Below, one piece after another: positions 47,668 to 64,000 of a DNA stretch of 64,000 bases. The first letter of the stretch is position 1. Each line of letters starts with the position of its first letter. Made by a program: the position numbers and the translations under genes. The DNA is from Deltaproteobacteria bacterium GWC2_55_46 (GTDB taxonomy: Bacteria; Desulfobacterota; GWC2-55-46), in contig LVEI03000002.1 in the NCBI GenBank assembly GCA_001595385.3, positions 51,924 through 115,923 of the forward strand, given 5' to 3'. Below the pieces are notes generated by a model. That model did not search any database and had not been told where the DNA came from. It was given only the letters and a program-made list of their open reading frames with translations.

Positions 47668-48030
47668 GTGATAACGCACGGGATAGATATCGCCCATATA
47701 GAAAGGATAAGGGAGCTTTCTGAGCACCAGACTTTTCTGGAAAGGGTGTTTACAGAAGGCGAGATTGCCTACTCTTTCTCAAAACCTGAGCCGCATAAGC
47801 ACCTGGCGGGCCGTTTTGCTGTAAAAGAAGCTGTAATGAAGGCCCTTGGCACAGGATGGGCACTGGGTGTCACCTGGACGGATATCGAGGTAATAAACTG
47901 GCCTGATAAGAGCCCTGTTGTTCACTTGAAAGATGAGGCCGCCAGACTGTCATATGGCAAACGAATACACATCAGTATCTCTTATTCAAGCGGTTTAGCC
48001 TTCGCCGCGGCAGTCATCGAGAGCCTCTGA
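47668..48030 (+). CDS. acpS: Holo-[acyl-carrier-protein] synthase (4'-phosphopantetheinyl transferase)
   Basis: GIDIAHIERI...RVFTEGE...LAGRFAVKEAVMKALGTG is the AcpS signature. 120 aa. Confidence 0.85.
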   Translation: MITHGIDIAHIERIRELSEHQTFLERVFTEGEIAYSFSKPEPHKHLAGRFAVKEAVMKALGTGWALGVTWTDIEVINWPDKSPVVHLKDEAARLSYGKRIHISISYSSGLAFAAAVIESL

Positions 48031-48041
48031 ACCAAAGGGCT

Positions 48042-49487
48042 TCAACCAAGTTTCTTTTCCACACGGCCTGCGGCCTTGTGCCCGGAATAGGCTGCGGCAA
48101 CAACACCACCGCCGGTGCCTTCCCAATGTCCTGCCAGATAAAGTCCGTCAATGAATGTGTTGAGGGGCCGTAGCCCCGGAGACTGAGTCCATCCGTAAGC
48201 TGCTCCACCAGTATTAGCTGTATACCGCTCAAGGGTCGCAGGTGTAGCTACCTCGACATGGGCGGCGCTGCGGCAAATCCCAGGGATTATCAGGTCCGCT
48301 TTTTTCAGTATTTTATCTGTAAGTTCCCCTTTTGATGCCTTCCAATCATTCTTGAAAGAGAAACTGGACATCTCGTGCGCCGTTACCGAATGAATTCCGT
48401 CAGGGGCCATGTCAGGGTCAATTAACGACGGTATTGTGATGCCTATGGAACCGGCAGTGTTGAAACAAGCCTCTTCGGTAAAATTGTAATCCATGTCGAA
48501 GGTAGGATAATAACCGATGCTGGATGACCTTTCCAGATGGCTCAGGTCCATTTTTACCCCGGCGTAAAGTATGAAAAAAGAAGAGGAAGCTCCTGTGACC
48601 TTCTGCGCCAAAGCCCTCGGCTGGTCTGCTTTAGTTGAAAGCATCTCAAAGGTCTTGTAAAAATCAATATTCGAGATAACCGTCTTTGATGTGAACTCGT
48701 CTCCGTCCGAGGTTGCGACTCCTATAGCCTTTCCGTTCTCTACTATGATGCGTTCTGCTTTTTTTTTGAAGATGACTTCCGAACCTCTTGATTTTATGCC
48801 TGAGCTGATAGCCTCCGCGAGCCTCTGCGAGCCGCCCTTTATTCTCCAGGCCCCTGATGAAAAATAACTCATTATGAGAGCTATCATCGCTACAGAGCCG
48901 ACCCTTGTGGGAGGCACTCCGTAAAAAGGGCACCTGTCGGACAACACCGCCTTTAGCCTTGTGTCTTTTATACAAGTATCCAGCAGTTCTCCATAGGTAA
49001 GTCTGCTGAGTTCCACGATGTTTACGGGAATGCGCTCGTGTGGGAGAAGGCCCGCAATGAAATCTCCCCAACCCTTTATCTCGGAGTAAACAGCATTGAA
49101 AATCCTGAACAGGGAATCTATTCCGGCACTCTCCGATGGGAAGAGGGACTTAAGCTCACTGATATATCTTTCGATATCCGCATGGACATGAATTGTAAGA
49201 CCCGGGAATATCGAGGTCCGTATCGGGTCGAGGCGTATGGGTTTTAAAGTTTTTTCGACACCTAAGGAAGAAAGTACGATTGAAACAGGGCCGTTTGCAT
49301 CCAGCCCGCTGAAACAGTCGACGCATGAGTCGAAGGTAATGGAACGCCTCCTGAAAGACTGTAAATAACCGCCAGGTACAGGGTTCTGCTCAAGTATAAG
49401 CACCTTGTAACCTTTAGAAGCAAGTCTGCCCCCGGCTACGAGGCCCCCGATTCCCGAGCCTATTATCACGCAATCGAAATCAGGCAT
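48042..49487 (-). CDS. FAD-dependent oxidoreductase, phytoene-desaturase (CrtI)-like family
   Basis: N-terminal FDCVIIGSGIGGLVAGGRLASKGYKVLILEQNPVPGG dinucleotide fold. C-terminal GLYLAGHW..TGGGV. Confidence 0.8.
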   Translation of the reverse strand: MPDFDCVIIGSGIGGLVAGGRLASKGYKVLILEQNPVPGGYLQSFRRRSITFDSCVDCFSGLDANGPVSIVLSSLGVEKTLKPIRLDPIRTSIFPGLTIHVHADIERYISELKSLFPSESAGIDSLFRIFNAVYSEIKGWGDFIAGLLPHERIPVNIVELSRLTYGELLDTCIKDTRLKAVLSDRCPFYGVPPTRVGSVAMIALIMSYFSSGAWRIKGGSQRLAEAISSGIKSRGSEVIFKKKAERIIVENGKAIGVATSDGDEFTSKTVISNIDFYKTFEMLSTKADQPRALAQKVTGASSSFFILYAGVKMDLSHLERSSSIGYYPTFDMDYNFTEEACFNTAGSIGITIPSLIDPDMAPDGIHSVTAHEMSSFSFKNDWKASKGELTDKILKKADLIIPGICRSAAHVEVATPATLERYTANTGGAAYGWTQSPGLRPLNTFIDGLYLAGHWEGTGGGVVAAAYSGHKAAGRVEKKLG

Positions 49488-51931
49488 CAGTTTTTCTTTT
49501 TCTCAATAAGTGAAAGCAAGGAGGGGAGAAGCAATAAAGAGGTGAACAGGCTCATAAGGACGCCTATGGTTATCACCGCGCCCAGGGAAGCGATACCCTC
49601 AAAGCTCATGGTTATAAGAGAGCCGAAACCGGCTATGGTCGTAAGCGCGCACATGATTACAGATTTCCAGATTTTTTCGATACCTTCTCCAGGATTGCCT
49701 TCATTTTCAATATAGCCCTGCATGATATAGACGCTGTAATCGATGCCTATTCCTAATATGAGCGCGACAGCGCCTATATTGATGTAGTTAAAGCGTATCC
49801 CGAGGATGGACATGGCTCCAACTGTCAAGAGAAAGGTTATTAACAGTGAAGCCTGGACAGCCAGGGTCCATTTGAGCTTTTTGAATTGGAACCATATTAT
49901 GAATGTTATGATGAGATAAGTGATGCCTGAAGCGATCGTGATATCCTTTATGAGCGCTCCCTTGAGCGTCCTCAGCATTACAGGCGCACCTGTGATGGAA
50001 GTTCCCGGGACTTTGCTGATTTCATCTGAGACTGTCTTTATCGAATCGTCATCCCACTTTTCCTTAGGGAAAATATATGAAGCGGTCTTGAAGCGCTCCG
50101 GGTTGTAAAAGAGCCTGATTTTTTTATCCGAGTTGGCCTTAAGCTCGCTTAGCGTGATAAGGGACTTGTTATTGTAAGCCTGTGCCACCTGTTCGATGTA
50201 CTTTTCCTGATATGCTCCGGTTTTGAACCCGTTTGCTTTCAGGGCCTTCAAAAAGCGTTCTTTCAATTCACCGGCTTCGAGACACTTATCGGTTCTTTCG
50301 ATAGCAGCTTTCTGTTGTGAGGGGGGCGGCAAAAAAAGGCTCAGGGACGAGTAGGACCCTATCTTCGATTCAGCTTCAAGACTCTTGAAAGATGATTCCA
50401 GCTGGTCGTAGGCAGATAGAAGCCCTTCACTGGAGGCAGCCTCATTTACGACTATGAGCGGGTTTTCACCTGTGTCAAACGCCGATGAAATCTTTTTTTG
50501 AAGGGCGAATACGGGGCTGCCGCTTTTGCCTATGGATTCCGGATCTGAATCAAACCTGAGCTTTGGGATGAAGATAAGGCTTATGATTACGGCGGCGGCT
50601 CCGATTGAAAGGAACAAAGCGGGCCTTCTCCGTACCGCTCCGGCGCTTTTCGAGAGGTTTTGTTTCAAAGGCGAGTTCGAGACGAGGCGCGGCCCGAGCA
50701 GGATGGCGGCCGGGCACATGAAAAATATCATCGTTAAAAGGCAGGCGAGCACCCCGATGCCTGCCACTATCCCGAATTCGTACATGCCCTTGAAGTCGGT
50801 AAAAAGTATCGAGAAGAACGCGAGAGATGTGGTGACAGAGCCGACCACAACACCTGGCAAGACTCTGGTAAAGGCCGCTTCGAGCGCTTTTACGCGGTCC
50901 CCGCTTGCTCTGTACTCCTCCTCCCAACGGTTGAAAATATGAATTATATAGTCTATCCCCATTCCCATGAGCATCACTATGACGACGCATGAGACCATAT
51001 TGAGTCCGCCAAAAAAAACATAGGCGAAAGCGAGCGTATAAATGAGCGCGATTGCGAGCGTAACGGCAGTCAATATAAGGACGAGCAGCCTTTTTCTGTA
51101 AACGAACTGGAAGAGTAATATGATAATAATGCTTGATGTAACGAAGTTGGTGACGATCTCATCTTTTAATGACGAATGGGCCTCCATTGCAAAGGCATAA
51201 GGGCCGGTGAGGCCGATTGTTACGCCATCTGTGCCGTCAAGCGCCGCCCCTATGATTGAATTCATCTCGGTGGAGAACTCTTCGATGAACTCCATGTCCC
51301 GCGCCGTTTTTTTCGGTTTCACGAACATGAGGAGCATCGTCTGCTCCTTGTCCATGTAATACCCGCCCTGGCCGGAAAATCCCTTTTTGGAGATACTTTT
51401 CAGGACTATCGAACCAAGGTCGAGTGGGTCTTTTGAGATGAGGTCAGCCGCCACCGGCGAGGATACCGGAGAGAAGAGCGTTTCACGGTTTTTTCCGAGC
51501 TGCTCTGCCATCCCAGCCGGACTGAGCCTCTTGTCGAGCTCGTCTGATTCAGCAGGTCCAAGGAAAAGCGGGAAACGCTTGAGCAGGAGTTCCGGCTTGG
51601 ACTTGAGAGCGTTGTAATCGACATATTCTACATATTCAGATGAAGTGAGCTTTTCTGCGAGGTACTCAACGACTTCGATGTGCTCAAATACGTTCCCGTC
51701 CTTTGTCTCGATAGCGATGATTAGGTTGTCGGCCGAACCGAAATCCTCAAGAAAATCCTTGAACCTGGTGATGTTCGGGTCGTTCGAAGGCAGGACATCG
51801 AGCATGTCGGTCTTAAATTCTATCCGTAAGACCAGGGAAGCCAAGACGATGGCGAGTGTCACTGACGCAAGGGCCAGGAGCCTGTAATGGCCTATTATGA
51901 ATTGCGCTAATCTGTGAAAGAATATGTTCAT
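49487..51931 (-). CDS. MMPL/RND-superfamily exporter (HpnN/ApeM-like)
   Basis: 814 aa. Two 6-TM bundles, each following a large periplasmic loop. Its stop overlaps the downstream gene's start. Confidence 0.8.
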   Translation of the reverse strand: MNIFFHRLAQFIIGHYRLLALASVTLAIVLASLVLRIEFKTDMLDVLPSNDPNITRFKDFLEDFGSADNLIIAIETKDGNVFEHIEVVEYLAEKLTSSEYVEYVDYNALKSKPELLLKRFPLFLGPAESDELDKRLSPAGMAEQLGKNRETLFSPVSSPVAADLISKDPLDLGSIVLKSISKKGFSGQGGYYMDKEQTMLLMFVKPKKTARDMEFIEEFSTEMNSIIGAALDGTDGVTIGLTGPYAFAMEAHSSLKDEIVTNFVTSSIIIILLFQFVYRKRLLVLILTAVTLAIALIYTLAFAYVFFGGLNMVSCVVIVMLMGMGIDYIIHIFNRWEEEYRASGDRVKALEAAFTRVLPGVVVGSVTTSLAFFSILFTDFKGMYEFGIVAGIGVLACLLTMIFFMCPAAILLGPRLVSNSPLKQNLSKSAGAVRRRPALFLSIGAAAVIISLIFIPKLRFDSDPESIGKSGSPVFALQKKISSAFDTGENPLIVVNEAASSEGLLSAYDQLESSFKSLEAESKIGSYSSLSLFLPPPSQQKAAIERTDKCLEAGELKERFLKALKANGFKTGAYQEKYIEQVAQAYNNKSLITLSELKANSDKKIRLFYNPERFKTASYIFPKEKWDDDSIKTVSDEISKVPGTSITGAPVMLRTLKGALIKDITIASGITYLIITFIIWFQFKKLKWTLAVQASLLITFLLTVGAMSILGIRFNYINIGAVALILGIGIDYSVYIMQGYIENEGNPGEGIEKIWKSVIMCALTTIAGFGSLITMSFEGIASLGAVITIGVLMSLFTSLLLLPSLLSLIEKKKN

Positions 51932-52056
51932 GCCGGATAAAAAATACTATTGGTAAAACCATAAAGCAAGGGAGAATATGAGGGCGCTTTTACACTTTTA
52001 AAGAATCACTGTATATGCTATTCTAAGCAACCACTAAATACCCGTAAGAACACACA

Positions 52057-52944
52057 ATGTCCATAGAGCATTTCACCGAAGAAAAAAGGCATCTTCTCGC
52101 CAGGCCCGGCGTTTACAACTTCGGGATATGGAGTGCTGGATATATACCAAAGTTCCTTTCATACGGCGTGGCTGGAACTATCGCCGGAATCAGTTGTTTT
52201 TTTTACAAGGGCGCGAGGAAAAACCTTGAGAAAAACCTGAGGCGTGTCTTTCCCGAAGCAACTGAAGACAGCATAGCCGTGCTTGCGCGCAAAACCTTCA
52301 AGAACTACTCCAGATATCTTATCGATTACGCAAGGTTCAAATCAATAGATAAAGAGACCCTCGAAAGGGAGCTTGTTTGCATTGACGGGGGGCATTTCAT
52401 AGATGAATGCCTTTCGGGCGGAAAGGGGATAATCCTCCTGACCGCTCACCTTGGGAATTGGGAGCTCGGCGGCATTTTTTTCGGAAAGCACGACATAAAG
52501 ATAAATGTGCTTACAGCCAAGGACAATATCGATGAGATAACGGCAATAAAAGAACGATACAGAAAGTTCCATAATATAAGCACGATAGTGATAGGAGATA
52601 CGCCCTTTGCAGGTCTTGACGCGCTCAATGCCCTCATGCGTAATGAGGTCGTGGCCATGCTCGTCGACAGGGCCGCCGAAGGCGGGGTGCCTGTGCCTTT
52701 CTTCGGCACACCTACGACCTTTCCTGCCGGACCATTGCTCCTTGCTCGTGCCACAGGTTCTCCCATAATGCCGGCTTTTGTCGTAAGAGAGGGCAGTGGG
52801 TACAGGGCCATTGCCGAAAAGCCCATTTACTTCGATAAGGAAGCCGGCGATACGCTTGAGTCGGTCGCGGGGAAAGTAATAAAAAAATTTGAGCAGTACA
52901 TAAGGAAGTACCCGGATCAATGGTACAACTTTGTAGAGGTGTGA
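52057..52944 (+). CDS. Lysophospholipid/lipid A-type acyltransferase (LpxL/HtrB family)
   Basis: GIILLTAHLGNWELGG catalytic His motif. 295 aa. Confidence 0.75.
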   Translation: MSIEHFTEEKRHLLARPGVYNFGIWSAGYIPKFLSYGVAGTIAGISCFFYKGARKNLEKNLRRVFPEATEDSIAVLARKTFKNYSRYLIDYARFKSIDKETLERELVCIDGGHFIDECLSGGKGIILLTAHLGNWELGGIFFGKHDIKINVLTAKDNIDEITAIKERYRKFHNISTIVIGDTPFAGLDALNALMRNEVVAMLVDRAAEGGVPVPFFGTPTTFPAGPLLLARATGSPIMPAFVVREGSGYRAIAEKPIYFDKEAGDTLESVAGKVIKKFEQYIRKYPDQWYNFVEV

Positions 52945-53669
52945 TGTTCAGAGTTTTTAATGTAAGAGCGGCCATTGTTTTAGCGGCCCTGATTGCTGTG
53001 CTGTTTTCAGCCAGTTCCGGCATATCCGGCCAGCCTGACCTAGGCGAGCCTCTGAGCGCGGTCGAAGCCGCCTCAGCGTTCGACAGGATTAAAAACGCGC
53101 AGTCCGGGATTGACTCTGTCCTTGCCAGGGTCAGGCAGACGAAGAGTTCGCCCCTTCTTGATAAGGATATCGTGACAGAGGGTTCGGTCCTTCTCAAAAA
53201 GCCCAATTTCATGAGATGGGAGATCGATTCTCCGCAGAAGATGGTCGTTGTCGCGGACGGTGAGGCTCTGTGGGTCTACAGGCCAGCGAAGAGGGACGCG
53301 ACTAAAAGGCTGCTCGCCGGGGACATGGTCGTCAGGTACACTGTCGGCTTTCTCTCTTCAAGCATGAATTTTTCGCTCGATGAGATATCAAAGAACTTCA
53401 AATTGTTGACTTATGTGAAAGACGGCGCCACGATAATCCTTTTTCAGCCTAAGTCGAAAATGCTTTCGAGATTTCTGAAAGACCTTAAAATATTTTACGG
53501 CCCAGACGGGCTGCCGCGGCGTTTCGAGGTGCAAACGAAAGACGGTTCGACGACAAGTACGGAGATAGGGGAAGTCGTGGTAAACAGCGTAAAAGATAAT
53601 ACCCCGTTCTCGCTGAAACTCCCATCCGGCACCGTAGTGAGGACGCTCGGAGCCGAAGAGACGCGCTGA
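52944..53669 (+). CDS. LolA-like lipoprotein-carrier-fold protein
   Basis: Signal peptide plus the ...F.Q......L......G.v.lkkP...rWe...P....vv.DG..lW.Y.P pattern. ATG overlaps the upstream stop (TGATG). Confidence 0.65.
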   Translation: MFRVFNVRAAIVLAALIAVLFSASSGISGQPDLGEPLSAVEAASAFDRIKNAQSGIDSVLARVRQTKSSPLLDKDIVTEGSVLLKKPNFMRWEIDSPQKMVVVADGEALWVYRPAKRDATKRLLAGDMVVRYTVGFLSSSMNFSLDEISKNFKLLTYVKDGATIILFQPKSKMLSRFLKDLKIFYGPDGLPRRFEVQTKDGSTTSTEIGEVVVNSVKDNTPFSLKLPSGTVVRTLGAEETR

Positions 53670-53670
53670 A

Positions 53671-54318
53671 ATGCTGCGGATTGCCTCAGTTCTCATATTC
53701 CTGGCCATAGCCGCGCTGTTGGTTTACAGGTTCGCTCCCGGGCTCAGTCCGGCGGAGCTCCGTGCCTTCGTTCATTCTTTCGGAGCCCTTGCCCCGATAG
53801 TCTTCATAATCATAGTCGCGCTGAAGCCCATTCTTTTTTTTATCCCCTCGTTGGGGCTTACGGTAATAGCGGGGACGATGTTCGGCCCGTTTTACGGCAC
53901 TATCTATGTATCGATAGGCGCGGCAGGCTCCACGGCAGTGGCTTTTTACTTCGCCCGCATTTTGGGCAGAAGGGGAGTGGAGCGGGTCGTAAGCGGCAGT
54001 AAAAAGCTTCTGAACTTCGATAACAACATGGAGCAAAATGGTTTCAGGACCGTTTTTTTCATGCGGCTGTTCAACATCCCCTGGGACCTCGTAAGCTACT
54101 CTGCCGGGCTCTCTAAAATGCCTTTCAGGGATTTTTATCTGAGCAGCATGATATTGATAATCCCCATCTGTTTCATATATACCTATTTCGGAAGCACTGT
54201 AGAGGAGCCATTAAGCCCAGGCTTCATAATATCTTTGGCTGTGCTTATAGGTCTCGGCTCAATGCCATTCATATTTAAAGCGCTTAAAAAGAAAAATCAG
54301 GGTAACTTAGGGATGTAA
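53671..54318 (+). CDS. TVP38/TMEM64 (DedA/SNARE-associated) family membrane protein
   Basis: FMRLFNIPWDLVSYSAGLSKMPFRDFY motif, 5-6 TM segments. Confidence 0.75.
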   Translation: MLRIASVLIFLAIAALLVYRFAPGLSPAELRAFVHSFGALAPIVFIIIVALKPILFFIPSLGLTVIAGTMFGPFYGTIYVSIGAAGSTAVAFYFARILGRRGVERVVSGSKKLLNFDNNMEQNGFRTVFFMRLFNIPWDLVSYSAGLSKMPFRDFYLSSMILIIPICFIYTYFGSTVEEPLSPGFIISLAVLIGLGSMPFIFKALKKKNQGNLGM

Positions 54319-54342
54319 GACACCGGCTTAAGTTCTTAATGC

Positions 54343-55761
54343 ATGCTGGCTGGGAATCAGCTCACAAATAAAATTTTTTTTCAGAATGAGAAAAAAACAA
54401 CAGGGGTTTTGAATTTGAGTAAGCCTAAGCTTCTCTTGATATCACCGATAGCCGCTAAAAGCATAATGGGCAAGGATTTTTATTTCAGGCTCCCGACCTT
54501 GGGACTGCTGAAAGTGGCTGCGCTCACCCCTGACGGCTGGGACATTAATATCGTCGACGAAAAGGCCGAGCCCATAGACCTGAACCAGGATGCCGATCTT
54601 GTAGGCATCACTTCAATGACCCCGGCGGTAAACAGGGGATATGAGATAGCCGACCACTTCAGGGCAAGGGGCATCAAGGTGGTTATGGGCGGCATGCACC
54701 CGTCCAAGATGCCGGAAGAGGCCTTGCAGCACGCTGACAGCGTGGTAATAGGAGAGGCCGAAGGGCTATGGCCCGGAGTGCTCGAGGACTTCAAGCATGG
54801 GAAGCTTAAAAAAATATATAAGCACAGCGCCTATCCCTCCCTTGTAAACATTGGTATCGCTGACTGGGAGCTCTATCGGAACAAGCGGTATCTTCCTGTT
54901 CACTTTGTCGAGACGACAAGGGGGTGCCCGCACGACTGCGACTTCTGCTCGGTAACAAACTCATTCGGCGGAAAGTTCAGGTCAAGGCCTGTAGACGAGG
55001 TTGAAAACGAAGTCAGGCAGCTGAAACACTTCGACGGCAGGTTCATCCTCAAAAATATGGTTTTTTTTGTAGACGACAACATCATAAGCAACCGGGCTTA
55101 CGCGAGGGAGTTCTTCAAGCGTATCGCTCCTTATAACCTGAAATGGCTCGGCCAGGCTTCCGTAAATGTCGCCAGTGACGATGAGATACTCAGGCTTATG
55201 AAGCAAAGCGGCTGCCTGGGGCTCTTGGTCGGTTTCGAGACGCTTTCAAACAATAATCTCAATACCGTTGGAAAGAACTTCAATCATCCCGATAAGTATA
55301 TTGATGTCATAAAAAAGCTGCATGACCACGGCATAGGCGTTAACGGCGCATTCGTATTCGGGCTCGATGATGATGACGAAGGGGTTTTTGACCGTACGCG
55401 CGAGTTTGTAGTAAAGGCCAAACTCGATGTCTGTTATTTCTCTATTCTGACCCCTTATCCTGGGACCGTGCTTTATGAAAGGCTCAGGAAAGAGGACAGG
55501 ATAATCGATAACGACTGGTCGAACTACACCACGAGTTCTGTTGTCTACAGGCCCAAAAAAATGACCCCGGAAAAGCTCCTTGATGGTTATTATGACGCTT
55601 ACAGGGGAGCGTTCACATATTCTTCGATTTTCAAAAGGCTCTGGGGCAATGGGACCTATAAAAACTTTTTCTGGCCGATGAACTTCGGTTTTAAGCAGAG
55701 CATAGAAAAATCAGTTGAGCGCTTGAAGGCCATGGAGAATTCCTCTCTTAGAAATAGCTGA
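54343..55761 (+). CDS. B12-binding-domain radical SAM protein
   Basis: DLVGITSMTP...GIKVVMGGMHPS cobalamin-binding domain, then ETTRGCPHDCDFCSV (CxxxCxxC). Start uncertain, with TTG options at about 54409-54415. Confidence 0.8.
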   Translation: MLAGNQLTNKIFFQNEKKTTGVLNLSKPKLLLISPIAAKSIMGKDFYFRLPTLGLLKVAALTPDGWDINIVDEKAEPIDLNQDADLVGITSMTPAVNRGYEIADHFRARGIKVVMGGMHPSKMPEEALQHADSVVIGEAEGLWPGVLEDFKHGKLKKIYKHSAYPSLVNIGIADWELYRNKRYLPVHFVETTRGCPHDCDFCSVTNSFGGKFRSRPVDEVENEVRQLKHFDGRFILKNMVFFVDDNIISNRAYAREFFKRIAPYNLKWLGQASVNVASDDEILRLMKQSGCLGLLVGFETLSNNNLNTVGKNFNHPDKYIDVIKKLHDHGIGVNGAFVFGLDDDDEGVFDRTREFVVKAKLDVCYFSILTPYPGTVLYERLRKEDRIIDNDWSNYTTSSVVYRPKKMTPEKLLDGYYDAYRGAFTYSSIFKRLWGNGTYKNFFWPMNFGFKQSIEKSVERLKAMENSSLRNS

Positions 55762-55763
55762 AA

Positions 55764-56976: not shown

Positions 56977-57801
56977 ATGTTGAACGCGCTCACTGTCGAC
57001 CTCGAGGACTGGTACCACGTATGCGGCGGCGGAAGGCACACTGACCCCAGGGTCTGGGACGAGTACGAGGACCGTGTCACGCGGAATACGGATAAGATAC
57101 TCAGGATGCTCTCAGCTTATTCCTGCAAGGCGACTTTTTTTGTGTTGGGCTATATAGCCGAGAGAAACCCGGAGCTTGTAAAGAGGATTCATGACGAGGG
57201 GCACGAGATAGCGGTCCACGGCTATTATCACAAACGAGTATTTGAGATGACCCCCGCCGAGTTCGAGGACGACCTTTTAATGTCGATAAGCGCCGTCAAA
57301 TCCATTACTCATGAAAATGTGCTTGGCTTCAGGGCGCCTGAATGGTCGATAAGGGATAACGCTCAGTGGGCCTTTCCTATAATAAGAAAGGCAGGGCTGA
57401 GATACGATTCCAGCACTGTGCCGCTTACGAGGATGGGCGACAGATCGTATAAAAAGACTCCCCATAAAATTGATACCCCTTACGGAGAGCTTTACGAATT
57501 TCCACTTACGACCTTCAAGCTGTTCTGGGAAAACCTGCCTTATACCGGTGGGCTTCCGATGAGGGTGGCGCCTTACTTCTTCATATGCTCATCGATAAAA
57601 AAGCTGAACGGCATGGGGATACCCGCCATCTCTTACATCCATCCGTGGGAGTTCGACAAGGACCAGCCGGAGATAGAACTGCCCATATCAAGGCGGTTCA
57701 TGCATTATTTCAATATACAGGCGACAAGACCTAAGATAGAGGGGCTTTTAAGGCATTTCAGGTTCGCGCCGGTAAAGGATGTGCTTGGTCTGAATGCTTA
57801 G
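56977..57801 (+). CDS. Polysaccharide deacetylase family protein (DUF3473-type C-terminus)
   Basis: LNALTVDLEDWYHV...ATFFVLGYIAE..PELVKRI..EGHEIAVHGY.H...FRAPEWS. Confidence 0.75.
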   Translation: MLNALTVDLEDWYHVCGGGRHTDPRVWDEYEDRVTRNTDKILRMLSAYSCKATFFVLGYIAERNPELVKRIHDEGHEIAVHGYYHKRVFEMTPAEFEDDLLMSISAVKSITHENVLGFRAPEWSIRDNAQWAFPIIRKAGLRYDSSTVPLTRMGDRSYKKTPHKIDTPYGELYEFPLTTFKLFWENLPYTGGLPMRVAPYFFICSSIKKLNGMGIPAISYIHPWEFDKDQPEIELPISRRFMHYFNIQATRPKIEGLLRHFRFAPVKDVLGLNA

Positions 57802-58048
57802 AGATGTATATTACATACGGTCTTTAGTATCCACCTGTCTTTTCCTGGGAGCCGTCCTTTTCTCGCTCCTATTTTTCCTGTATTTTACCGGTGTATACGG
57901 TGCGGCCGCGTTCCTGGGGCTTGTATTCTTCCTGCTCGCTTATTTCTACAGGCTGCATCTTTTTCTATTTGCCGGCAGGAGAGGCATAGCAAATGGAGCC
58001 ATCAAGGAAGAACCTTTTAAAGATAGCAGGGCCAAATTCGAGGTCTGA
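57794..58048 (+). CDS. Small 2-TM membrane protein
   Basis: 84 aa. Overlaps both neighbours' termini (translationally coupled). Confidence 0.5.
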   Translation: MLRDVYYIRSLVSTCLFLGAVLFSLLFFLYFTGVYGAAAFLGLVFFLLAYFYRLHLFLFAGRRGIANGAIKEEPFKDSRAKFEV

Positions 58049-59250
58049 TGCGAAGGCGTGTCGCGATAACAGGGGCAGGAATTATCACAGCTCATGGAGC
58101 AGGCTATGGGAAAAACCTGTCTGCCTTCATGGAAGGCAAGGACAGTATCCGGGAAATTTCCTTGTTCGACTCAACCCGTTACAGGGGCAAAAAAGGAGGA
58201 GAAGTCCAGGAGTTTTCTTTTGGCATAAAACTTCAAAAGCTCAAGAAAAGGCGGCTCGACAGGGCAACGCTTCTTCTGCTGACTGCTTTCGAGGAAGCCA
58301 GAGAGGCGTCAGGGCTTTCTTTCGATGGAATCGAGGCTTTGGTCTCGCTCGGCACCACGCTCGGCGGCATGATATCCGGCGCCAGGTATCATACGGATTA
58401 TGTCAAAAAAGGCAGGATGCTTTCGCGGCCTTCGATGCTAACTGACTATCTTGCCCATTTTCAGGCAGCCCACCTTAAAGAAGAATACGGGATAGAAGGT
58501 GAGGCGGCGACCTTTAGTGACGCATGCGCTTCAAGCTCTAATTCTATTGGCTATGCGTTTGAATCGATACGCGGCGGTCTTGCCGATGTGGCTATAGCTG
58601 GAGGGTACGAGCCGATGTGCGAGTTCACCCTTGCTGGTTTTAACTCCCTTCAGGCAATAACTCCCGGCGTGTGCAGGCCGTTCGATAAGAACCGCGACGG
58701 GCTCGTGCTTGGCGAAGGCGCGGCGGTCCTCATACTTGAAGATCTGGAAAAAGCGCAAACCCGGGGAGCCGATATCCTGGGAGAGGTAATAGGGTTCGGC
58801 GCTTCTTCGGACGTGTTTCATTCGACAAGGCCTGATCCTGACGCAAAAGGCGCGATAGCCGCGATAAAAGCCGCTCTTGAGGACGCCGCAATAATGAGTT
58901 CTGATGTCGATTACATCAACGCGCATGGCACCGCCACCCCTTTTAACGACCAGATGGAAGCTCGGGCCATAATGGATGTCTTCGATAAAAAGGTGCCTGT
59001 AAGCTCGATTAAATCAATGGTAGGACATATGCTCGGGGCATCAGGGGCAACAGAGGCGATAGTATCGCTCATGGCGATACGGGAAGGGTTCCTGCCGCCG
59101 AATATAAATATGACCGAGCCGGACCCCGAGTGCGCCGTGAATATCGTAAGAAAACCAGTAAAGGGCGTCTCGATAAACAGGGTGCTTTCGACATCATTCG
59201 GGTTCGGAGGCGCGAACGCGGCCCTCGTTCTCCAGAAGTATAAACAATGA
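58048..59250 (+). CDS. Beta-ketoacyl-ACP synthase (FabF/KAS II-like), catalytically complete
   Basis: Cys in SDACASSS, His in INAHGTATPFND and SMVGHMLGASG. Confidence 0.85.
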   Translation: MRRRVAITGAGIITAHGAGYGKNLSAFMEGKDSIREISLFDSTRYRGKKGGEVQEFSFGIKLQKLKKRRLDRATLLLLTAFEEAREASGLSFDGIEALVSLGTTLGGMISGARYHTDYVKKGRMLSRPSMLTDYLAHFQAAHLKEEYGIEGEAATFSDACASSSNSIGYAFESIRGGLADVAIAGGYEPMCEFTLAGFNSLQAITPGVCRPFDKNRDGLVLGEGAAVLILEDLEKAQTRGADILGEVIGFGASSDVFHSTRPDPDAKGAIAAIKAALEDAAIMSSDVDYINAHGTATPFNDQMEARAIMDVFDKKVPVSSIKSMVGHMLGASGATEAIVSLMAIREGFLPPNINMTEPDPECAVNIVRKPVKGVSINRVLSTSFGFGGANAALVLQKYKQ

Positions 59251-60368
59251 AGGTCGTAATCACGGGAATAGGCATAGTATCCCCGGCCGGGATAGGCAAG
59301 GAGGCTCTTTGGGACGCCCTCGTCCAGGGCAGGTCTTGTATAGCTCCCATCGAGAGGCTCAATGGCGCTTATGAGGGGGCCGAGGTAAAGGGATTCTCCT
59401 TCGAGTCCAATTTTGAAGACAGGAGGTTCAGGCGCGCCGCTCTTGTCAGCAGGTTCGCTCTTGTGGCGGCAAAGCTCGCGTTGAAGGACGCTGGTTTTAA
59501 CGCCGCTCCAGGAGGGCTCGAACGCATGCGGGCAGGCGTGGTCTCTGGCATTACGCATGGCGCCCTCAATTTCAGCTGCGAATTTCATAATAGCTATATG
59601 GAAGAAGGCCCCGCGGGTGCGAGTCCCGCGCTTTTTTCAGACTCGGTACTGAATGCCACTACCGGAAGCCTGAGCCTTGCATTCTCAGCGAGAGGGCCAT
59701 CGCATACCCTGATAGGCGACAGCCCGGTCGGGCTTCAGGCGTTAAGGCTGGGTTCGATGCTGATCGCTTCAAAAAAAACTCAAATCTGCATGGTGGCTGC
59801 TTCCGAGGTGTTCGAAGAGATTTTGGCTTTTTCGTATTCCAGGCTCGGCCATATCAGTGGCCGGGCACCGAGCTTTAATGCCGGAGAAGGCTCTGCCGTG
59901 CTGATACTCGAAAGCCTTGAGGCGGCGCTTGAAAGAGGGGCAATGCCATTGGCCGAGGTTGGTGGATGTTCCGTAAGCACAGGTAAGGACCTGGTGTCTT
60001 CCTTGACAAAAACCTGCGCGGACTCTCTTAAGAATGCTGGCCTGTCTCTGAATAGCGTCACGCATGTAATAACCAGGCATCCCTACTGGCTTGGAGATTA
60101 TGAAGAAAAGGCTTTTGCCGGCCTGTTGCGGGGCAAGTCCGTCTCCTCGACATCCGCCTGCATAGGCGAGTGCTTCGGGTTATCTTCACTCACGGACATC
60201 GCAATGGCGGCAATTGCGGTCAATAAAGGGAAGATATTCGATTCCATGTGCCTCGATAGTCCGGCCTTGCAAACAGCTGGAGCAACCCCTCTGGAACCCT
60301 TAAATGTGCTTGTTGCGTCAACCGGGATCAAGTGCGAGGCCGGGTGCGCCGTGTTGAAAAGGATTTGA
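59247..60368 (+). CDS. KS-like protein lacking the catalytic Cys (chain-length-factor-like partner)
   Basis: By hand alignment GPSHTLIGDSPVG corresponds to the G.....TACxSG motif, with Ser at the Cys position. The His motifs are degenerate. ATGA overlap with the upstream KS. Confidence 0.7.
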   Translation: MKVVITGIGIVSPAGIGKEALWDALVQGRSCIAPIERLNGAYEGAEVKGFSFESNFEDRRFRRAALVSRFALVAAKLALKDAGFNAAPGGLERMRAGVVSGITHGALNFSCEFHNSYMEEGPAGASPALFSDSVLNATTGSLSLAFSARGPSHTLIGDSPVGLQALRLGSMLIASKKTQICMVAASEVFEEILAFSYSRLGHISGRAPSFNAGEGSAVLILESLEAALERGAMPLAEVGGCSVSTGKDLVSSLTKTCADSLKNAGLSLNSVTHVITRHPYWLGDYEEKAFAGLLRGKSVSSTSACIGECFGLSSLTDIAMAAIAVNKGKIFDSMCLDSPALQTAGATPLEPLNVLVASTGIKCEAGCAVLKRI

Positions 60369-61448
60369 ATGGCTACAATGCTTTTGCAAAATAGGATAAA
60401 CCCGCTGCGCCTCCAGGTCGTGCCAAAGGTCCTTACAGGCATGCTTCTTTCGTTTATAGAAAATGAAGGGATGTGCGATTTATTAAAAAGACCCGTGGCA
60501 TTTTCTTTCGAAGAGTTTTCAGCGGCTGCGCAACGCGCTCTTCATTATGAATTAAAAGACACTGTCAAAATAAGGATGATGAAGGTCGGGCTGGATTTTC
60601 TGACGGAGTGCGGGTACCTTGCCAGGCTGGAAAACTCGAAGTTCCTTTTTACGCCCGAGCGCATGGATAAGGCTGCTTACAGGTTGGATGACAGGGAAGG
60701 CGACCTTAAAAAAGCATTCTCGGGCGAATTTGATTTTTTCCAAGCATGCCTTGACGAAGCCCCCGGATTCCTAAGGGGAACGAAAGCCCCTGTCGGTTTT
60801 TCTCCGGCTTACGAGCAGCTATGGGACGGTTTTCTCGACAATATCGAGTTCGCTACGATGCGCAGGCTTCTTTTGAGTCTGATGGACCTTGAAAACAATC
60901 CAGGTTTCCGCGTGCTCGACCTGTGCTACGGAGTGGGTCATGGGCTTTCAGCGATACTTTCTGGTTATCCTGATATTAGATTGGCAGCCCTTGACCGTGA
61001 AAATGTCTACAAAGAGGCCGCTCTTAAGAAGACCGAAGGCTTTGATGTGGAGTTCATAAGCGAACATTGGGATGGCTTCGGCTCAAGGCTCCCGATTGAC
61101 GACGCTTCCTTTGACGCTGTCCACTTCATGTGCGCTGACCCGTATGTCCCGCCAGGAAAGCGCGATGGAGTCTATGGCGAGATAAAGAGGGTATTGAAGC
61201 CCGGGGGCACGCTTGGCATGATGACGTGGTCTTATCCTGAGGACGGGGCTCAGGCTCAAGACCCCTGGAGGAGGCGGCAGATACTTGCCCACGACTTTAT
61301 CGAGAGCGTTTGCGCCGGCTGGCATGGCTTTTATAAAGCAGGCGAGACAAGGGAGATGTTCGAGCGTTTAGGCTTCAGGCCGAAGAAGACGGTATTGCCA
61401 CTGGAGCCTTCGTTGAGTTCGGTTTTATGGGTGATGGAAAGACCATGA
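60369..61448 (+). CDS. Class I SAM-dependent methyltransferase with an N-terminal dimerisation-like domain
   Basis: Motif I VLDLCYGVGHGL and post-I/II LKPGGTLGMM. Confidence 0.7.
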   Translation: MATMLLQNRINPLRLQVVPKVLTGMLLSFIENEGMCDLLKRPVAFSFEEFSAAAQRALHYELKDTVKIRMMKVGLDFLTECGYLARLENSKFLFTPERMDKAAYRLDDREGDLKKAFSGEFDFFQACLDEAPGFLRGTKAPVGFSPAYEQLWDGFLDNIEFATMRRLLLSLMDLENNPGFRVLDLCYGVGHGLSAILSGYPDIRLAALDRENVYKEAALKKTEGFDVEFISEHWDGFGSRLPIDDASFDAVHFMCADPYVPPGKRDGVYGEIKRVLKPGGTLGMMTWSYPEDGAQAQDPWRRRQILAHDFIESVCAGWHGFYKAGETREMFERLGFRPKKTVLPLEPSLSSVLWVMERP

Positions 61449-62242
61449 GGCGCGTCGTTGTCACAGGCCTTGGACTTATAACGCCGCTTGACTGCGGAGG
61501 GGGCAAAGAGGTCTTCTGGACTGCCATCTCAAGCGGCAGGTGCTCAATAGGCCCGGTGAGCCTTTTTGACGCCTCAGGGTATTCGTCAGGCGTCGCGGCG
61601 GAAATAAAAGGCCTTACGGTTAAGCCCGAAGAAAGATGGCAACGACTGTTGGATACCGCAGTCGACTTTGCGCTTTCTGACGCTGGCATCAGGGAAGAAA
61701 GTAAAAGCAAAACAGGCCTTATTCTCGGTACAGTCGTAGGGGGGATACTTTCAGGGACCGCTGCGTGGCGCGCCCGCTCTGGTTTACCAGGTTCATATCA
61801 TCTCTACTCGGGCGCAAACGAAATCGCTAGGCGTATTAAGCTTGAGGGGCCTGTTACTACCGTCTCGACAGCCTGCGCGTCCGGCACTGACGCCGTCGGC
61901 ATGGCAGCCAGATGTATCCAGTCGGGCGGGGCTGATATGATGATGGCCGGGGGAGGGGATGTCCTTAGCGAGTTTGCCTTCAGCGGTTTCAGCGCCCTTA
62001 ATGCCATGACCAAAGGCGTTGTAAGGCCTTTCTCAAAAAACCGGGACGGACTTGCGCTTGGAGAGGGAGCAGGCTTTCTTGTACTGGAGGAAGAAAAACA
62101 TGCAAACGCGAGGGGCGCGCATATATATTGCAGACTCTCGGGTTATGCTTCAGCGGCAGATGCCAACCACATGACCGGCCCTGACAAAAACGGAAGAGGG
62201 CTTGCAGCCGCAATAACAGGGGAACGCGCTGATGCAGCTTGA
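61445..62242 (+). pseudogene. Beta-ketoacyl synthase, C-terminally truncated (about 265 aa, His-His region missing)
   Basis: Has TVSTACASGTDAVG (Cys) but stops after ...ADANHMTGPDKNGRGLAAAITG, before the expected xxNAHGT motif. Confidence 0.55.
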
Positions 62243-62489
62243 CGAGATAATCAATTTTCAGATAATAGCGTACTCAGGCGACGAAGGCTCTGACAGGATC
62301 ATCGTAAAAGCAGGTTCGACTGAGACAGACGACGCTCTTGTCGAGAAGATAAAAAACACCATTCGCTCTTACGCGAGAGTCGCTCCTGAGGTCGAAATAA
62401 TGTCCCCTGAAAGGGTGGATGGCCTTCTTTATGCAGGCAACAGACGCAAAAAGATGACCTTTGTGGACATGAGGGGAACCGTTGCATAG
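62232..62489 (+). pseudogene. C-terminal fragment of a PaaK/CapK-like adenylate-forming ligase
   Basis: FQIIAYSG..SDRIIVKAG...LVEKIKNTIR....V.PEVEIMSPE.......G...KK..FVD.R resembles the small C-domain of phenylacetate-CoA-ligase-type enzymes. No N-domain is present. Confidence 0.45.
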
Positions 62490-62572
62490 GCGTGGTTGAT
62501 TTATGTTCCGTGTAATATTTCCTTTTTTCTAATAGACCATTATTTAAACATCTGAGAGGGAGTTTTACTGCG

Positions 62573-63655
62573 ATGTCTTTGAACTACGAAGTGATACACG
62601 GTCTCGACTTTACTGATGCGCAAATCGAGGAGTGCCTTAAAAGAGAGGGCCTTCTTTCGCTGGAATTGGAATTCAGCCGCAAATGCAATCTGAGATGCGT
62701 GTACTGCTACTCCGAAGCCGGAGAGGGACTTAAAGACGAACTCAAGCCGGATCAGCTTATAAGCGTTATCGACCAGGCGGCTGACCTCGGAGCCCGTAAA
62801 ATCATACTTCTCGGAGGCGGTGAGCCGCTCATCTATGAGGGCCTTGAGGACATTATCAGGTATATAGACAAGAAAGGACTTGAGCAGACAGTATTCACCA
62901 ATGGCTTTTTGATGACATCCGATCTCGCGAAGTTCATGTTCGACCACAATGTGTCTGTAGTAGTCAAGCACAACAGCTTCAGCAAAAGGGTCCAGGACAG
63001 CCTCGCCGGGCTCGAAGGGGCCTACGAAAAGATACAGAAGGCGATAACGCATCTGTTTAACGCCGGATACCCGAACGGGCATCGGCAGATGGGTATTCAA
63101 ACCATAATCCTGAGACAGAACCTCGATGAGATACCCTCAATGTGGAAGTGGGCCAGAAATCTGGGGCTGATACCCTATTTCGAGATTCTGACAATGCAGG
63201 GCAGGGCGAAGGCTCACCCTGAGATACTGGTCTCGACCGAAGAGGTTCAGGAGGTCTTCAGCAAACTCCGTAATATAGACCAGGAGGAATTCGGCAGGAC
63301 GTGGTCGGCGCATCCGACCATTGCCTCTTTCACCTGCAAGCGCCACCTCTATTCGTGCCTTGTAAATTCGCAAGGCTTTATCCAGCCGTGCACAGGCATA
63401 GACCTTTTCGTAGGGAACGTCACGACTGAAAAGCTCGCCGATATTCTCCACAAAAGCCACGTCATAAAGGACTTGAGGAAGATACGCGCAAAGATAGAAG
63501 GCCCGTGCAAATCCTGCGACCTGAGCGCGGACTGTTACGGGTGCAGAGGCAATGCCTATCAGCTCACAGGCAATTACCTCGCCTCGGATCCCGAGTGCTG
63601 GATATCAAAAAAGCCCGATTCAAAAACGGGCAATACTTCATGCAAATCCTCCTGA
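62573..63655 (+). CDS. Radical SAM protein with a SPASM/twitch C-terminal domain
   Basis: RKCNLRCVYCYS (CxxxCxxC) and C-terminal CTG...CKSCDLSADCYGCRGNAY. Confidence 0.8.
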   Translation: MSLNYEVIHGLDFTDAQIEECLKREGLLSLELEFSRKCNLRCVYCYSEAGEGLKDELKPDQLISVIDQAADLGARKIILLGGGEPLIYEGLEDIIRYIDKKGLEQTVFTNGFLMTSDLAKFMFDHNVSVVVKHNSFSKRVQDSLAGLEGAYEKIQKAITHLFNAGYPNGHRQMGIQTIILRQNLDEIPSMWKWARNLGLIPYFEILTMQGRAKAHPEILVSTEEVQEVFSKLRNIDQEEFGRTWSAHPTIASFTCKRHLYSCLVNSQGFIQPCTGIDLFVGNVTTEKLADILHKSHVIKDLRKIRAKIEGPCKSCDLSADCYGCRGNAYQLTGNYLASDPECWISKKPDSKTGNTSCKSS

Positions 63656-64000
63656 TCTCAGTTAATACCGAGACAGAGCCGTATCCGGTCGAGCCTATAG
63701 GGCTTGCGTATATCGCTGCCTCTCTCGTTAAGGAGGGACACGCTGTCAAGGTGCTTGACCTGTGCTTTGAGGAAGATGGCCCGCATGCTGTTTTGAGCGC
63801 GATTGAGGGCTTCAGGCCAGGTCTCATCGGGATATCACTGAGGAATACGGATAACCTTACTTATCCCAAGAGCGTTTCCTATCTGCCTCCTGTCAGGGAA
63901 GTCGTTTCCGCGATAAGGAAAAAAACTGCGGCGACTGTCATAATAGGCGGCTCGGGTTTTTCTCTTTTTCCGAAGGAGACGCTTGAGTACCTTGGTCTTG
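63640..64000 (+). CDS. B12-binding-domain radical SAM protein, 3' end off-window
   Basis: ATG 63640 overlaps the upstream 3' end. MQILLISVNTETEPYPVEPIGLAYIAASLVKEGHAVKVLDL...LIGISLRN is a typical N-terminal cobalamin-binding domain. The frame is open to the window end. Confidence 0.65.
   Translation, partial: MQILLISVNTETEPYPVEPIGLAYIAASLVKEGHAVKVLDLCFEEDGPHAVLSAIEGFRPGLIGISLRNTDNLTYPKSVSYLPPVREVVSAIRKKTAATVIIGGSGFSLFPKETLEYLGL

Follow-up and report, generated by a model that had tools for sequence, protein, structure and literature searches.

What lipid might be made by the densely packed genes at the right end of the 64,000-nucleotide stretch of the Deltaproteobacteria bacterium GWC2_55_46 genome analysed here (contig LVEI03000002.1, positions 51,924 to 115,923; the whole stretch is referred to as the window, and its coordinates are used throughout), and do the same genes stand together elsewhere? 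A first-pass annotation had seen in the genes from 47668 onwards an uncharacterised, type II polyketide synthase (PKS)-like lipid cluster containing ketosynthases (KS) and radical S-adenosylmethionine (rSAM) enzymes. Scans of the window open reading frames (ORFs) against Pfam and NCBIfam, on which the domain calls given below are based, returned every domain it had called, each in its place, and its general description of a type II PKS- or fatty acid synthase-like lipid cluster with rSAM enzymes is supported. Judged by domain content and gene order, the window cluster is one copy of a conserved specialised-lipid family, marked by the NCBIfam model TIGR04072, that is already known but uncharacterised: a literature search found no characterised product, and the genes co-occur widely across genomes. 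Along the plus-strand run 52057–63655 consecutive stops and starts overlap or abut, a KS paralogue alignment and motif checks made on the window proteins agreed with the domain calls, and the CX3CX2C motif was found in 3/3 rSAM enzymes. The locus is a real, tightly packed cluster of genes predicted to serve lipid synthesis.

The suggestion that the cluster runs on past 64 kb also proved right. An exact look-up of the protein carrying both rSAM and SPASM domains led to six independently assembled contigs (L001–L006), identical to the window, the sources of which include Rifle aquifer data, two JGI metagenomes and two NCBI metagenome-assembled genomes (MAGs). On the parent contig L001, position 1 of which corresponds to window 52573, the genes beyond the window edge encode the full B12-binding rSAM enzyme, a FabG-like ketoreductase (KR) with a YxxxK motif, an acyl carrier protein (ACP) with a DSI motif, a FabZ/ApeP-like hot-dog dehydratase, a family 2 glycosyltransferase (GT2) and a second methyltransferase, after which come a convergent alpha/beta hydrolase gene and IS3-family transposases. 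The full B12-binding rSAM protein scored 425.4 bits against TIGR04072 ("rSAM_ladder_B12", lipid biosynthesis B12-binding/radical SAM protein), thus passing the cutoff of 360. No enoyl reductase is encoded among the cluster ORFs of the window and L001, and neither a thioesterase nor a DUF3261 protein was found in the cluster.

In a scan of one genome per species, 535 encoded relatives of the TIGR04072 protein were found. Homologues 47–49 % identical occur in Brocadia, Jettenia and other Brocadiaceae, and further ones in Nitrospirota, Dissulfurispiraceae and Deltaproteobacteria/Thermodesulfobacteriota. For the best 80 of the 535, the ORFs around the gene were called and each was given the identity of the window protein that it matched best. 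One architecture (class A) was common to about 30 loci from four phyla: ATP-grasp, TPR protein, deacetylase, KS, inactive KS, methyltransferase, KS, (short KS-like protein), ligase, SPASM rSAM, B12 rSAM, KR, ACP, dehydratase, (AcpS), methyltransferase, MMPL exporter, CrtI-like oxidoreductase and GT2. Since this order recurs in so many loci, the arrangement in the window is not due to chance. Class A includes anammox bacteria (Brocadia carolinensis L018, Jettenia ecosi L020 and other Brocadiaceae L022 and L024), Nitrospirota (L015, L016, L021, L025, L026, L029, L031, L033 and L040), NC10/Methylomirabilales (L041 and L062) and deltaproteobacterial MAGs (L007–L010, L012, L014 and L019). The SPASM gene lies immediately 5′ of the B12 rSAM gene in 35 loci, counting L001 and the sister contig L087 (see below); in the window the two overlap at 63640. 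The order active KS, triad-less KS and AmxMT1-type methyltransferase is present in the window and conserved in the class-A loci, and the window and L001 together contain the downstream KR–ACP–FabZ-like order with the CrtI-like, MMPL, GT2 and second methyltransferase genes nearby. A TPR gene at 46963–47592 is a conserved member as well (its homologues, 23–34 % identical, occupy a fixed slot between the ATP-grasp and deacetylase genes in Brocadia, Jettenia, Nitrospirota and deltaproteobacterial loci), which places the start of the cluster some 700 bp before the AcpS gene at 47668 with which the first-pass annotation had begun it. In some deltaproteobacterial class-A loci (L017, L019 and L028) a divergent extra B12-rSAM gene, its product 27–30 % identical to the TIGR04072 protein, sits between the third KS and the short KS-like gene.

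A second architecture, seen in Syntrophaceae and Geobacter, runs LpxL-type acyltransferase, ACP, B12 rSAM, B12 rSAM, TIGR04072 protein, KR and KS. It holds the closest relatives of the window acyltransferase and of the first window B12-rSAM enzyme, so that the window appears as a composite of a class-A block and a Syntrophaceae/Geobacter-type module. Two further conserved neighbourhoods of TIGR04072 (L030, L034, L036, L039 and L042–L060 from Syntrophaceae and related bacteria; L065, L075 and L081–L086 from Geobacter) contain two or three extra tandem B12-rSAM genes, an LpxL-type acyltransferase gene and an ACP gene, and lack the SPASM/ligase block beside TIGR04072. They could represent separate sub-families within one lipid system.

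Does the window then belong to a ladderane pathway? How anammox bacteria make ladderanes is a long-standing open question, and the kuste3352–3335 operon of Kuenenia stuttgartiensis has been a candidate since 2006–2009. The first-pass annotation had pointed to gene combinations proposed to make ladderanes, related clusters being known from some Deltaproteobacteria, and the connection is stronger than it had stated: the class-A order matches the published kuste3352–3335 gene list one for one (PMC4790861, PMC2649909), and both the TIGR04072 protein and the methyltransferase AmxMT1 (PDB 8HD2) are shared. The kuste numbers were mapped by gene order and published annotations, the sequence comparison being made with Brocadia and Jettenia orthologues, not with Kuenenia. 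The order is identical from the deacetylase gene to the FabZ-like gene, via the KS, inactive KS, AmxMT1-type methyltransferase, KS, ligase and rSAM genes; the ATP-grasp, TPR, second methyltransferase, MMPL, CrtI-like and GT2 genes are shared but partly re-ordered, and protein identities are 31–62 %. The window differs from the anammox operon in its host, a member of the Desulfobacterota, in having the CrtI-like, MMPL and AcpS genes in a divergent upstream unit, in adding a module of LpxL-type acyltransferase, LolA, DedA and second B12-rSAM genes, in the loss of the catalytic His from the FabZ-like protein of its lineage, and in missing the ligase, the short KS-like gene and the C-terminus of the third KS. 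The added module, the re-arranged flanks and the probably disabling deletion are what sets it apart from the anammox type.

The clusters of Kuenenia, and their like in Desulfotalea, Geobacter and Pelobacter, have been in the literature since Rattray et al. (2009; PMC2649909). Those of Desulfotalea psychrophila (DP1853/DP1855), Geobacter and Pelobacter combine KS, rSAM and CrtI-like lipid genes in anaerobes other than anammox bacteria; the Geobacter and Syntrophaceae loci share with the window the module of LpxL-type acyltransferase, ACP, B12 rSAM, TIGR04072 protein, KR and KS. The window thus equals a Geobacter/Syntrophaceae-type module plus a full anammox-type block, Desulfotalea being likened to it by its published description only. 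In genome-mining studies antiSMASH has returned "ladderane" calls from many phyla outside the anammox bacteria. When Javidpour et al. (2016) expressed the Kuenenia genes heterologously, no new fatty acid or other product appeared (PMC4790861). According to a 2026 review and a 2026 preprint, ladderane biosynthesis is still unsolved and attention has turned to a different, anammox-specific cluster; synthesis is now assigned to kuste3603–3608 (Cluster I; preprint 10.64898/2026.05.19.726425), the KS and triad-less KS of which were shown biochemically to form a heterodimer like that of a KS with its chain-length factor (CLF). Cluster I contains amxACP, amxFabZ, a CrtI-like enzyme, amxFabF2/amxFabFmut and a B12 rSAM, the same six enzyme types as the window family, but it is a separate, anammox-restricted locus. 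The first window KS (KS1) scored 269 bits against amxFabF2 versus 275 bits against Listeria or Bacillus FabF, and the dehydratase about 38 bits against amxFabZ, similar to its score against ordinary FabZ; a special kinship to the Cluster I proteins was accordingly rejected, the scores to the amxFabF and amxFabZ structures being no higher than those to ordinary FabF and FabZ. For these comparisons PDB 9S5H was presumed to be amxFabF, and 8AYC and 7QV0 to be amxFabZ, from deposit names and lengths.

The host itself bears on the matter. The relatives of the window ThrS (5790–7757) are up to 84 % identical, and all named ones belong to Deltaproteobacteria or Thermodesulfobacteriota MAGs, which shows that the host is not an anammox bacterium; it is an uncultured groundwater relative of sulfate-reducers within the Desulfobacterota, and for this reason ladderane synthesis by the window cluster is very unlikely. 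That the cluster makes fused-cyclobutane ladderane lipids would fit the name of the rSAM_ladder_B12 model and the long candidacy of the anammox orthologues as ladderane genes. The Desulfobacterota host, the presence of class A in Nitrospirota and NC10, with relatives in hundreds of species genomes mostly from non-anammox lineages, the absence of detected ladderanes in D. psychrophila (PMC2649909), the current focus on the anammox-specific kuste3603–3608 (preprint 10.64898/2026.05.19.726425) and the lack of any special affinity of the KS and dehydratase for amxFabF or amxFabZ all stand against it. The ladderane proposal is in our judgement close to refuted. That an operon of the kuste3352–3335 type recurs in Desulfobacterota, Nitrospirota and NC10, its genes matching one by one, argues instead for a product more general than ladderanes.

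The genes and remnants of the cluster within the window are the following.

46963–47592, plus strand: TPR protein with an N-terminal signal-like segment (Pfam TPR_8/TPR_2)
47668–48030, plus strand: holo-ACP synthase AcpS (PF01648, 65.8 bits; TIGR00516, 81.5 bits, cutoff 59.8)
48042–49487, minus strand: CrtI/carotenoid-isomerase-family FAD oxidoreductase, kuste3336 position (Amino_oxidase, 66 bits)
49487–51931, minus strand: MMPL/HpnN-like RND lipid exporter (PF03176, 111.7 bits; HpnN TIGR03480, 251.6 bits, below cutoff)
52057–52944, plus strand: LpxL/PIM-type acyl-ACP-dependent acyltransferase (PF03279, 129.7 bits; HX4E present as HLGNWE at residue 131)
52920–53669, plus strand: LolA-like periplasmic lipid carrier (PF03548, 56 bits; LolA2_flexi, 48.4 bits, cutoff 125)
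53671–54318, plus strand: DedA/VTT-domain membrane protein (PF09335, 85 bits; weak match to the undecaprenyl-phosphate transporter UptA, E = 1.6e-5)
54343–55761, plus strand: B12-binding rSAM enzyme with DUF4070 (PF02310, PF04055, PF13282; CX3CX2C at residue 195); its true start is probably 54415 (448 aa, given by most gene callers)
55764–56945, plus strand: ATP-grasp ligase (CPSase_L_D2, ATPgrasp_Ter)
56977–57801, plus strand: polysaccharide-deacetylase-fold enzyme with DUF3473, kuste3351 position (PF01522, PF11959)
57794–58048, plus strand: hydrophobic small membrane protein of 84 aa, without a Pfam or NCBIfam family match
58048–59250, plus strand: predicted active ketosynthase KS1, kuste3349 position (both KS domains; Cys/His/His)
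59247–60368, plus strand: predicted inactive, CLF-like KS partner, kuste3348 position (N-terminal KS domain only)
60369–61448, plus strand: AmxMT1-type C-methyltransferase, kuste3347 position (match to PDB 8HD2)
61427–62242, plus strand: remnant of the third ketosynthase (KS3), kuste3346 position (N-terminal KS domain only)
62222, no strand: deletion junction (2,179 bp lost relative to L087)
62232–62489, plus strand: C-terminal 85 aa of a FlxY/PaaK-type acyl-CoA ligase, kuste3344 position (FlxY model positions 345–424 of 424)
62573–63655, plus strand: radical SAM/SPASM enzyme, kuste3343 position (PF04055, 80 bits; SPASM, 29.7 bits)
63640–64000, running off the window, plus strand: N-terminus of the TIGR04072 B12-binding rSAM enzyme, kuste3342 position (first 120 aa, 112 bits to TIGR04072)

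Two of these, the ORFs of 84 aa (57794–58048) and 85 aa (62232–62489), had not been listed before. The first is kept in place in L012 and L014 (29–35 % identity) and in L087, where its ratio of non-synonymous to synonymous substitution rates (dN/dS) is 0.29. The second leads to a deletion in the window copy. The 90 %-identity protein cluster of the 271-aa window KS also has 389-aa members, and it was through these that L087 was found, a groundwater metagenome contig with 90–97 % DNA identity to the window contig. Between its methyltransferase and SPASM genes L087 encodes a 389-aa full KS (Cys/His/His), a 199-aa KS-like protein and a 424-aa AMP-binding FlxY/PaaK-like ligase (477.6 bits to flexirubin FlxY, cutoff 520; 255.7 bits to PaaK). 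This set of a third full KS, a short KS-like gene and a ligase is not found at that place in the window, where position 62222 aligns to both L087 10796 and L087 12975, that is, a clean deletion of 2,179 bp, the sequence reading ...ATAACAGGGG up to the junction and AACGCGCTGATG... beyond it. The KS3 remnant is intact through residue 266 and then continues for six out-of-frame codons, and the 85-aa ORF is the C-terminus of the ligase, starting from an internal Met. The structure is identical in all six independently assembled contigs L001–L006, and among the class-A loci spanning the methyltransferase–SPASM stretch the ligase is missing only in the window. The third KS had earlier been noted as truncated, which is correct; that it is a deletion scar, with the starter ligase lost alongside it, had gone unrecognised. 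Recognising the truncated KS and the 85-aa ORF as what the 2,179-bp deletion left behind is new, and the missing KS3, KS-like and ligase genes are a secondary loss that provides no argument against family membership.

Comparison of the window with L087 gave dN/dS values of 0.06–0.29 for all genes outside the ACP gene and the ligase remnant, and these remaining genes are intact; all changes in the ACP gene are synonymous, and for the 85-aa remnant of the ligase the value is 0.44, from five substitutions. Relaxed selection after the deletion was considered and rejected, as the KS remnant has a dN/dS of 0.11, like its neighbours, and decay was not seen. The deletion is probably recent. Since the ligase and the catalytic half of KS3 are lost, priming in the window strain should be blocked or changed, and its predicted pathway is probably crippled or inactive, or else primed in another way. 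Synonymous divergence (dS) between window/L001 and L087 varies more than tenfold between genes (0.02–0.03 for ACP, KR, deacetylase and dehydratase; 0.27 for KS1 and the CLF-like protein; 0.49 for DedA), and this unevenness across the sister clusters suggests mosaic recombination inside the cluster. A further difference lies between the DedA gene and the first B12-rSAM gene, where L087 (2356–2959) has a gene for a 186-aa lipoprotein (lipobox LVFTGC) and the window (54295–54387) has 92 unrelated bases; this could be an insertion or a deletion.

To which known assembly line can the encoded enzymes be compared? The KS, inactive KS and export genes had been likened to aryl-polyene (APE) and flexirubin clusters, and the same kinds of parts are indeed present: a KS with an inactive KS, an extra KS, KR, hot-dog dehydratase, ACP, adenylating ligase, methyltransferase, GT2, LPLAT-type acyltransferase, LolA-like protein and MMPL. 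In KS1 the catalytic Cys lies in DACAS and the His residues in HGTAT (293) and GHMLGASG (326); its score to the FabF model TIGR03150 was 385 bits, below the cutoff of 493.75. The start of the KS partner gene overlaps the KS1 stop by 4 bp, and the KS paralogue alignment confirmed the Ser already noticed at the catalytic Cys position of the partner, adding that the first His is absent and the second replaced by Glu. All proteins of the E. coli CFT073 ape locus were compared by BLAST. KS1 is 34–36 % identical to ApeR/ApeO (229 bits to ApeR and 180 bits to ApeO, versus ~275 bits to the best FabF structures), the KR 39 %, the ACP 33 % and the MMPL protein 22 % identical to their Ape counterparts, and the acyltransferase matches ApeJ at 26 % identity, not ApeD. 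The ligase, the CLF-like protein, the dehydratase, LolA and the methyltransferases gave no BLAST match to the E. coli Ape proteins; in particular, the CLF-like protein against ApeC and the ligase against ApeH gave none at E <= 1e-3. LPLAT, LolA-like, MMPL and GT2 are all encoded, so that the APE-like export set stands as architecture; its sequence matches are remote or absent. Orthology to the E. coli aryl-polyene cluster was consequently rejected and the architectural resemblance alone retained; the likeness appears to be one of pathway logic, not of family membership. As the first-pass annotation had held, rSAM, ATP-grasp and deacetylase genes lie outside APE clusters: the CFT073 ape cluster has none of them, nor a CrtI-like gene. 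Flexirubin models came closer than E. coli ape, all of them under their cutoffs (FlxY 477.6/520 with the L087 ligase, FlxB 259.6/340 with the L001 KR, LolA2_flexi 48.4/125), and no DarA/DarB-like gene was seen among the window and L001 ORFs. In CLFs of the actinorhodin type, Gln at the Cys position is a criterion for aromatic type II PKS. An aromatic type II PKS was rejected here, as the CLF-like protein has Ser at that position and no cyclase/aromatase domain was found in the cluster.

The dehydratase is peculiar. In L001 (13444–13851), L087 and L007 the FabZ-like protein has lost the FabZ catalytic His, with GTFP or LFLP instead of GHFP (E. coli FabZ being the reference in this comparison). 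ApeP likewise has no FabZ catalytic His. The residue is kept in the anammox, NC10 and most Nitrospirota orthologues, L021 and L026 being the exceptions.

Taken together, the explanation to which we would give slightly better than an even chance is that an aryl-polyene/flexirubin-like type II assembly line makes a methyl-branched, rSAM-tailored acyl chain that is put on a membrane glycolipid and exported, the window copy being probably inactive or re-primed. Apart from the structural and ACP-binding work on an AmxMT1 homologue, the chemical steps are all read from domain homology. AcpS would phosphopantetheinylate the dedicated ACP. In the intact version, the FlxY/PaaK-type ligase would activate a carboxylic-acid starter, possibly aromatic, and a KS and the short KS-like protein would prime the chain, which the heterodimer of KS1 and the Cys-less KS would then elongate with malonyl-ACP. 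The FabG-like KR and the FabZ/ApeP-like protein would process the beta-carbon, and in the absence of any encoded enoyl reductase the chain would remain unsaturated. The AmxMT1-type methyltransferase would alpha-methylate beta-ketoacyl-ACP intermediates; the window enzyme matches PDB 8HD2 (Brocadia fulgida AmxMT1) over nearly its full length (223.9 bits, E = 2.6e-65) and conserves the His-x3-Glu dyad (HDFIE at 308) and the active-site Tyr (CADPY), and the AmxMT1 study proposes alpha-methylation of a short beta-ketoacyl-ACP (PMC9821293). Tailoring of the chain would fall to the two B12-rSAM enzymes, the SPASM rSAM enzyme and the CrtI-like flavoenzyme, by C-methylation and by desaturation, saturation or isomerisation.

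The CrtI-like enzyme allows for another explanation, which Rattray et al. proposed for the genes that Kuenenia and Desulfotalea share and in which the cluster is an anaerobic route to polyunsaturated fatty acids or hydrocarbons, the CrtI-like enzyme desaturating with the assistance of the rSAM enzymes. The protein has GxGxxG at residue 10, is 40–52 % identical to the corresponding gene product (PDH) of the class-A loci, and has CrtI (4DGK, 68.5 bits) as its nearest solved structure; against TIGR02730 it scored 202 bits, far under the cutoff of 586.9. A CrtI-family enzyme without an enoyl reductase would suit such a route, and D. psychrophila, which carries the homologues DP1853/DP1855, contains polyunsaturated hydrocarbons (PMC2649909). 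This last evidence is correlative only, however; the Kuenenia CrtI homologues had no phytoene desaturase activity, making no lycopene in E. coli (PMC4790861), and the ligase, two methyltransferases, GT2, ATP-grasp, deacetylase and export genes would be left unexplained. We regard this route as improbable.

The B12-rSAM enzymes raise the possibility of mid-chain methyl-branched fatty acids (10- or 11-methyl C16) formed by B12-rSAM methylation of an unactivated carbon. Among its characterised relatives, the TIGR04072 enzyme scores highest against methyltransferases (BzaD, 230 bits; TsrM, 170 bits in NCBIfam and 156 bits with PDB 6WTE; PhpK, 132 bits), which would agree with methylation, and anammox, NC10, Nitrospira-like and Desulfobacterota bacteria overlap with the groups reported to hold mid-chain methyl acids. 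BzaD and TsrM, the closest of these relatives, nevertheless methylate aromatic carbons, not alkyl chains, some 20 genes with KS/CLF, ligase, glycosyltransferase and exporters far exceed what such a product needs, and a literature search found no support; the idea is even less probable than the polyunsaturate route. Of the other two rSAM enzymes, the first B12-rSAM has HpnJ and BchE as top NCBIfam matches, both far under cutoff, and copies 39–43 % identical to it adjoin TIGR04072 in Syntrophaceae and Geobacter loci. The SPASM rSAM enzyme has CX3CX2C at residue 38 and C-terminal Cys clusters, its top NCBIfam matches are AhbD and NirJ2, below cutoff, and it is 51–78 % identical in all class-A loci.

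In the assembly-line scheme favoured here, the LpxL-type acyltransferase would move the acyl group from ACP onto a membrane glycolipid, GT2, deacetylase, ATP-grasp and second methyltransferase would build or modify the head group, and DedA, MMPL and LolA would carry the lipid towards the outer membrane. The same genes permit a reading as lipid A or lipopolysaccharide remodelling, in which a special acyl-ACP is added by the LpxL-type enzyme as a secondary acyl chain and an amino sugar is attached by GT2, deacetylase and DedA in the manner of ArnC, ArnD and a polyprenyl-phosphate flippase. The acyltransferase is of the LpxL/PIM type with HX4E, GT2 (on L001) matches the polyprenyl-phosphate glycosyltransferases AglJ, PpgS and ArnC (PRK10714, 55 bits), the deacetylase has the NodB fold, which is also that of ArnD, and DedA weakly matches UptA; all these scores, however, are far under the family cutoffs, and an ArnT-like transferase is absent. 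The LpxL-type gene is missing from anammox-type loci and 32–45 % identical in the Geobacter and Syntrophaceae TIGR04072 neighbourhoods; as the anammox, Nitrospirota and NC10 versions lack it and LolA while keeping the rest, lipid A cannot be the general acceptor. Lipid A remodelling is unlikely as such, if the least unlikely of the alternatives, and it overlaps the assembly-line explanation, the acceptor being the sole difference. The shared head-group, carrier and export genes are conserved to different degrees: the MMPL protein is 32–43 % identical in anammox, Nitrospirota, NC10 and L009 loci, the ATP-grasp protein 48–56 % identical to its counterpart at the same position in Brocadia and Nitrospirota, and the deacetylase (TIGR03006, 263.2 bits, cutoff 276.2) 57–65 % identical across phyla; AcpS also lies within the cluster in L015, L019, L021, L025 and L029.

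Several points weigh against the assembly-line explanation. There is little or no orthology to the E. coli APE genes, and every flexirubin equivalog score is under its cutoff. The dehydratase without its catalytic His may mean that dehydration needs another enzyme. The absence of decay in the KS remnant (dN/dS 0.11) may mean either that the deletion is recent or that the leftover genes still function. The identities proposed for the acceptor lipid and for the starter acid are guesswork. The Kuenenia genes, when expressed, yielded no new fatty acid (PMC4790861), and a literature search gave no product for any family member, Geobacter and other carriers included.

The surroundings of the cluster are those of a plastic, IS-rich region of the chromosome. 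A frameshifted IS3-family element lies just upstream (45389–46587), and a 73-bp copy of its end (window 46513–46585) recurs, 90 % identical, at L001 18843–18915, beyond the IS3-family elements that lie downstream of the cluster (the whole stretch being L001 16959–18915); with such elements and end copies on both sides, the cluster is bracketed by IS debris. An origin of the 73-bp flanking repeat as a tRNA/att site was rejected, since no tRNA was found and the repeat is the end of IS3-family elements. The G+C content is 0.45–0.51 over 46–58 kb and 62–64 kb, versus 0.53–0.58 over the first 17 kb of the window. The left end (536–12481) holds ordinary chromosomal genes (a GT1 glycosyltransferase, a FemAB-type GNAT (Acetyltransf_6), thrS, pheS and pheT), which indicates that the window is chromosomal, not plasmid-borne. 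A tRNA gene (13334–13407) is followed by a D5-primase/DUF5906 gene (14923–16734, minus strand) and by ~20 kb of ORFs, to 36200, of which few were scanned, with no Pfam match, and which show a strong positive AT skew; the segment 13334–36200 looks like an integrated mobile element or prophage. A complete type I-C CRISPR-Cas operon (38535–44081; Cas5d, Csd1/Cas8c, Cas7, Cas4, Cas1 and Cas2) comes next, with a short repeat array of 2.5 units and 65-bp period beside it (44264–44429). An Rfam scan of the whole window for a cobalamin riboswitch or other controlling RNA returned only two tRNAs, far upstream, and a promoter/terminator scan of 46300–64000 gave counts equal to the shuffled expectation and was uninformative.

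What the family means for lipid biology can be put as follows. Its spread beyond anammox bacteria directs work on ladderanes to the anammox-only cluster. Hardly any work exists on how rSAM enzymes modify fatty-acyl (non-isoprenoid) lipids, ladderanes and jawsamycin being the only cases listed in a 2026 review, so that any product of the TIGR04072-marked family would be new chemistry. The window copy is of limited practical use, since the organism is uncultured and the priming genes are lost. Tentatively, and with clearly less than even confidence, we suggest that the TIGR04072 block (KS/CLF, AmxMT1-type methyltransferase, KS, ligase, SPASM rSAM, TIGR04072 rSAM, KR, ACP and dehydratase) specifies, in strict anaerobes, a membrane lipid of a class not yet described, with an unsaturated, C-methylated chain that is primed by an aryl group or an acid and tailored by cobalamin-dependent and SPASM rSAM enzymes, and that kuste3352–3335 is unrelated to ladderanes. 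If this is true, the deleted allele of the window and the intact allele of L087, carried by sister groundwater populations, would constitute a natural knockout/wild-type pair.

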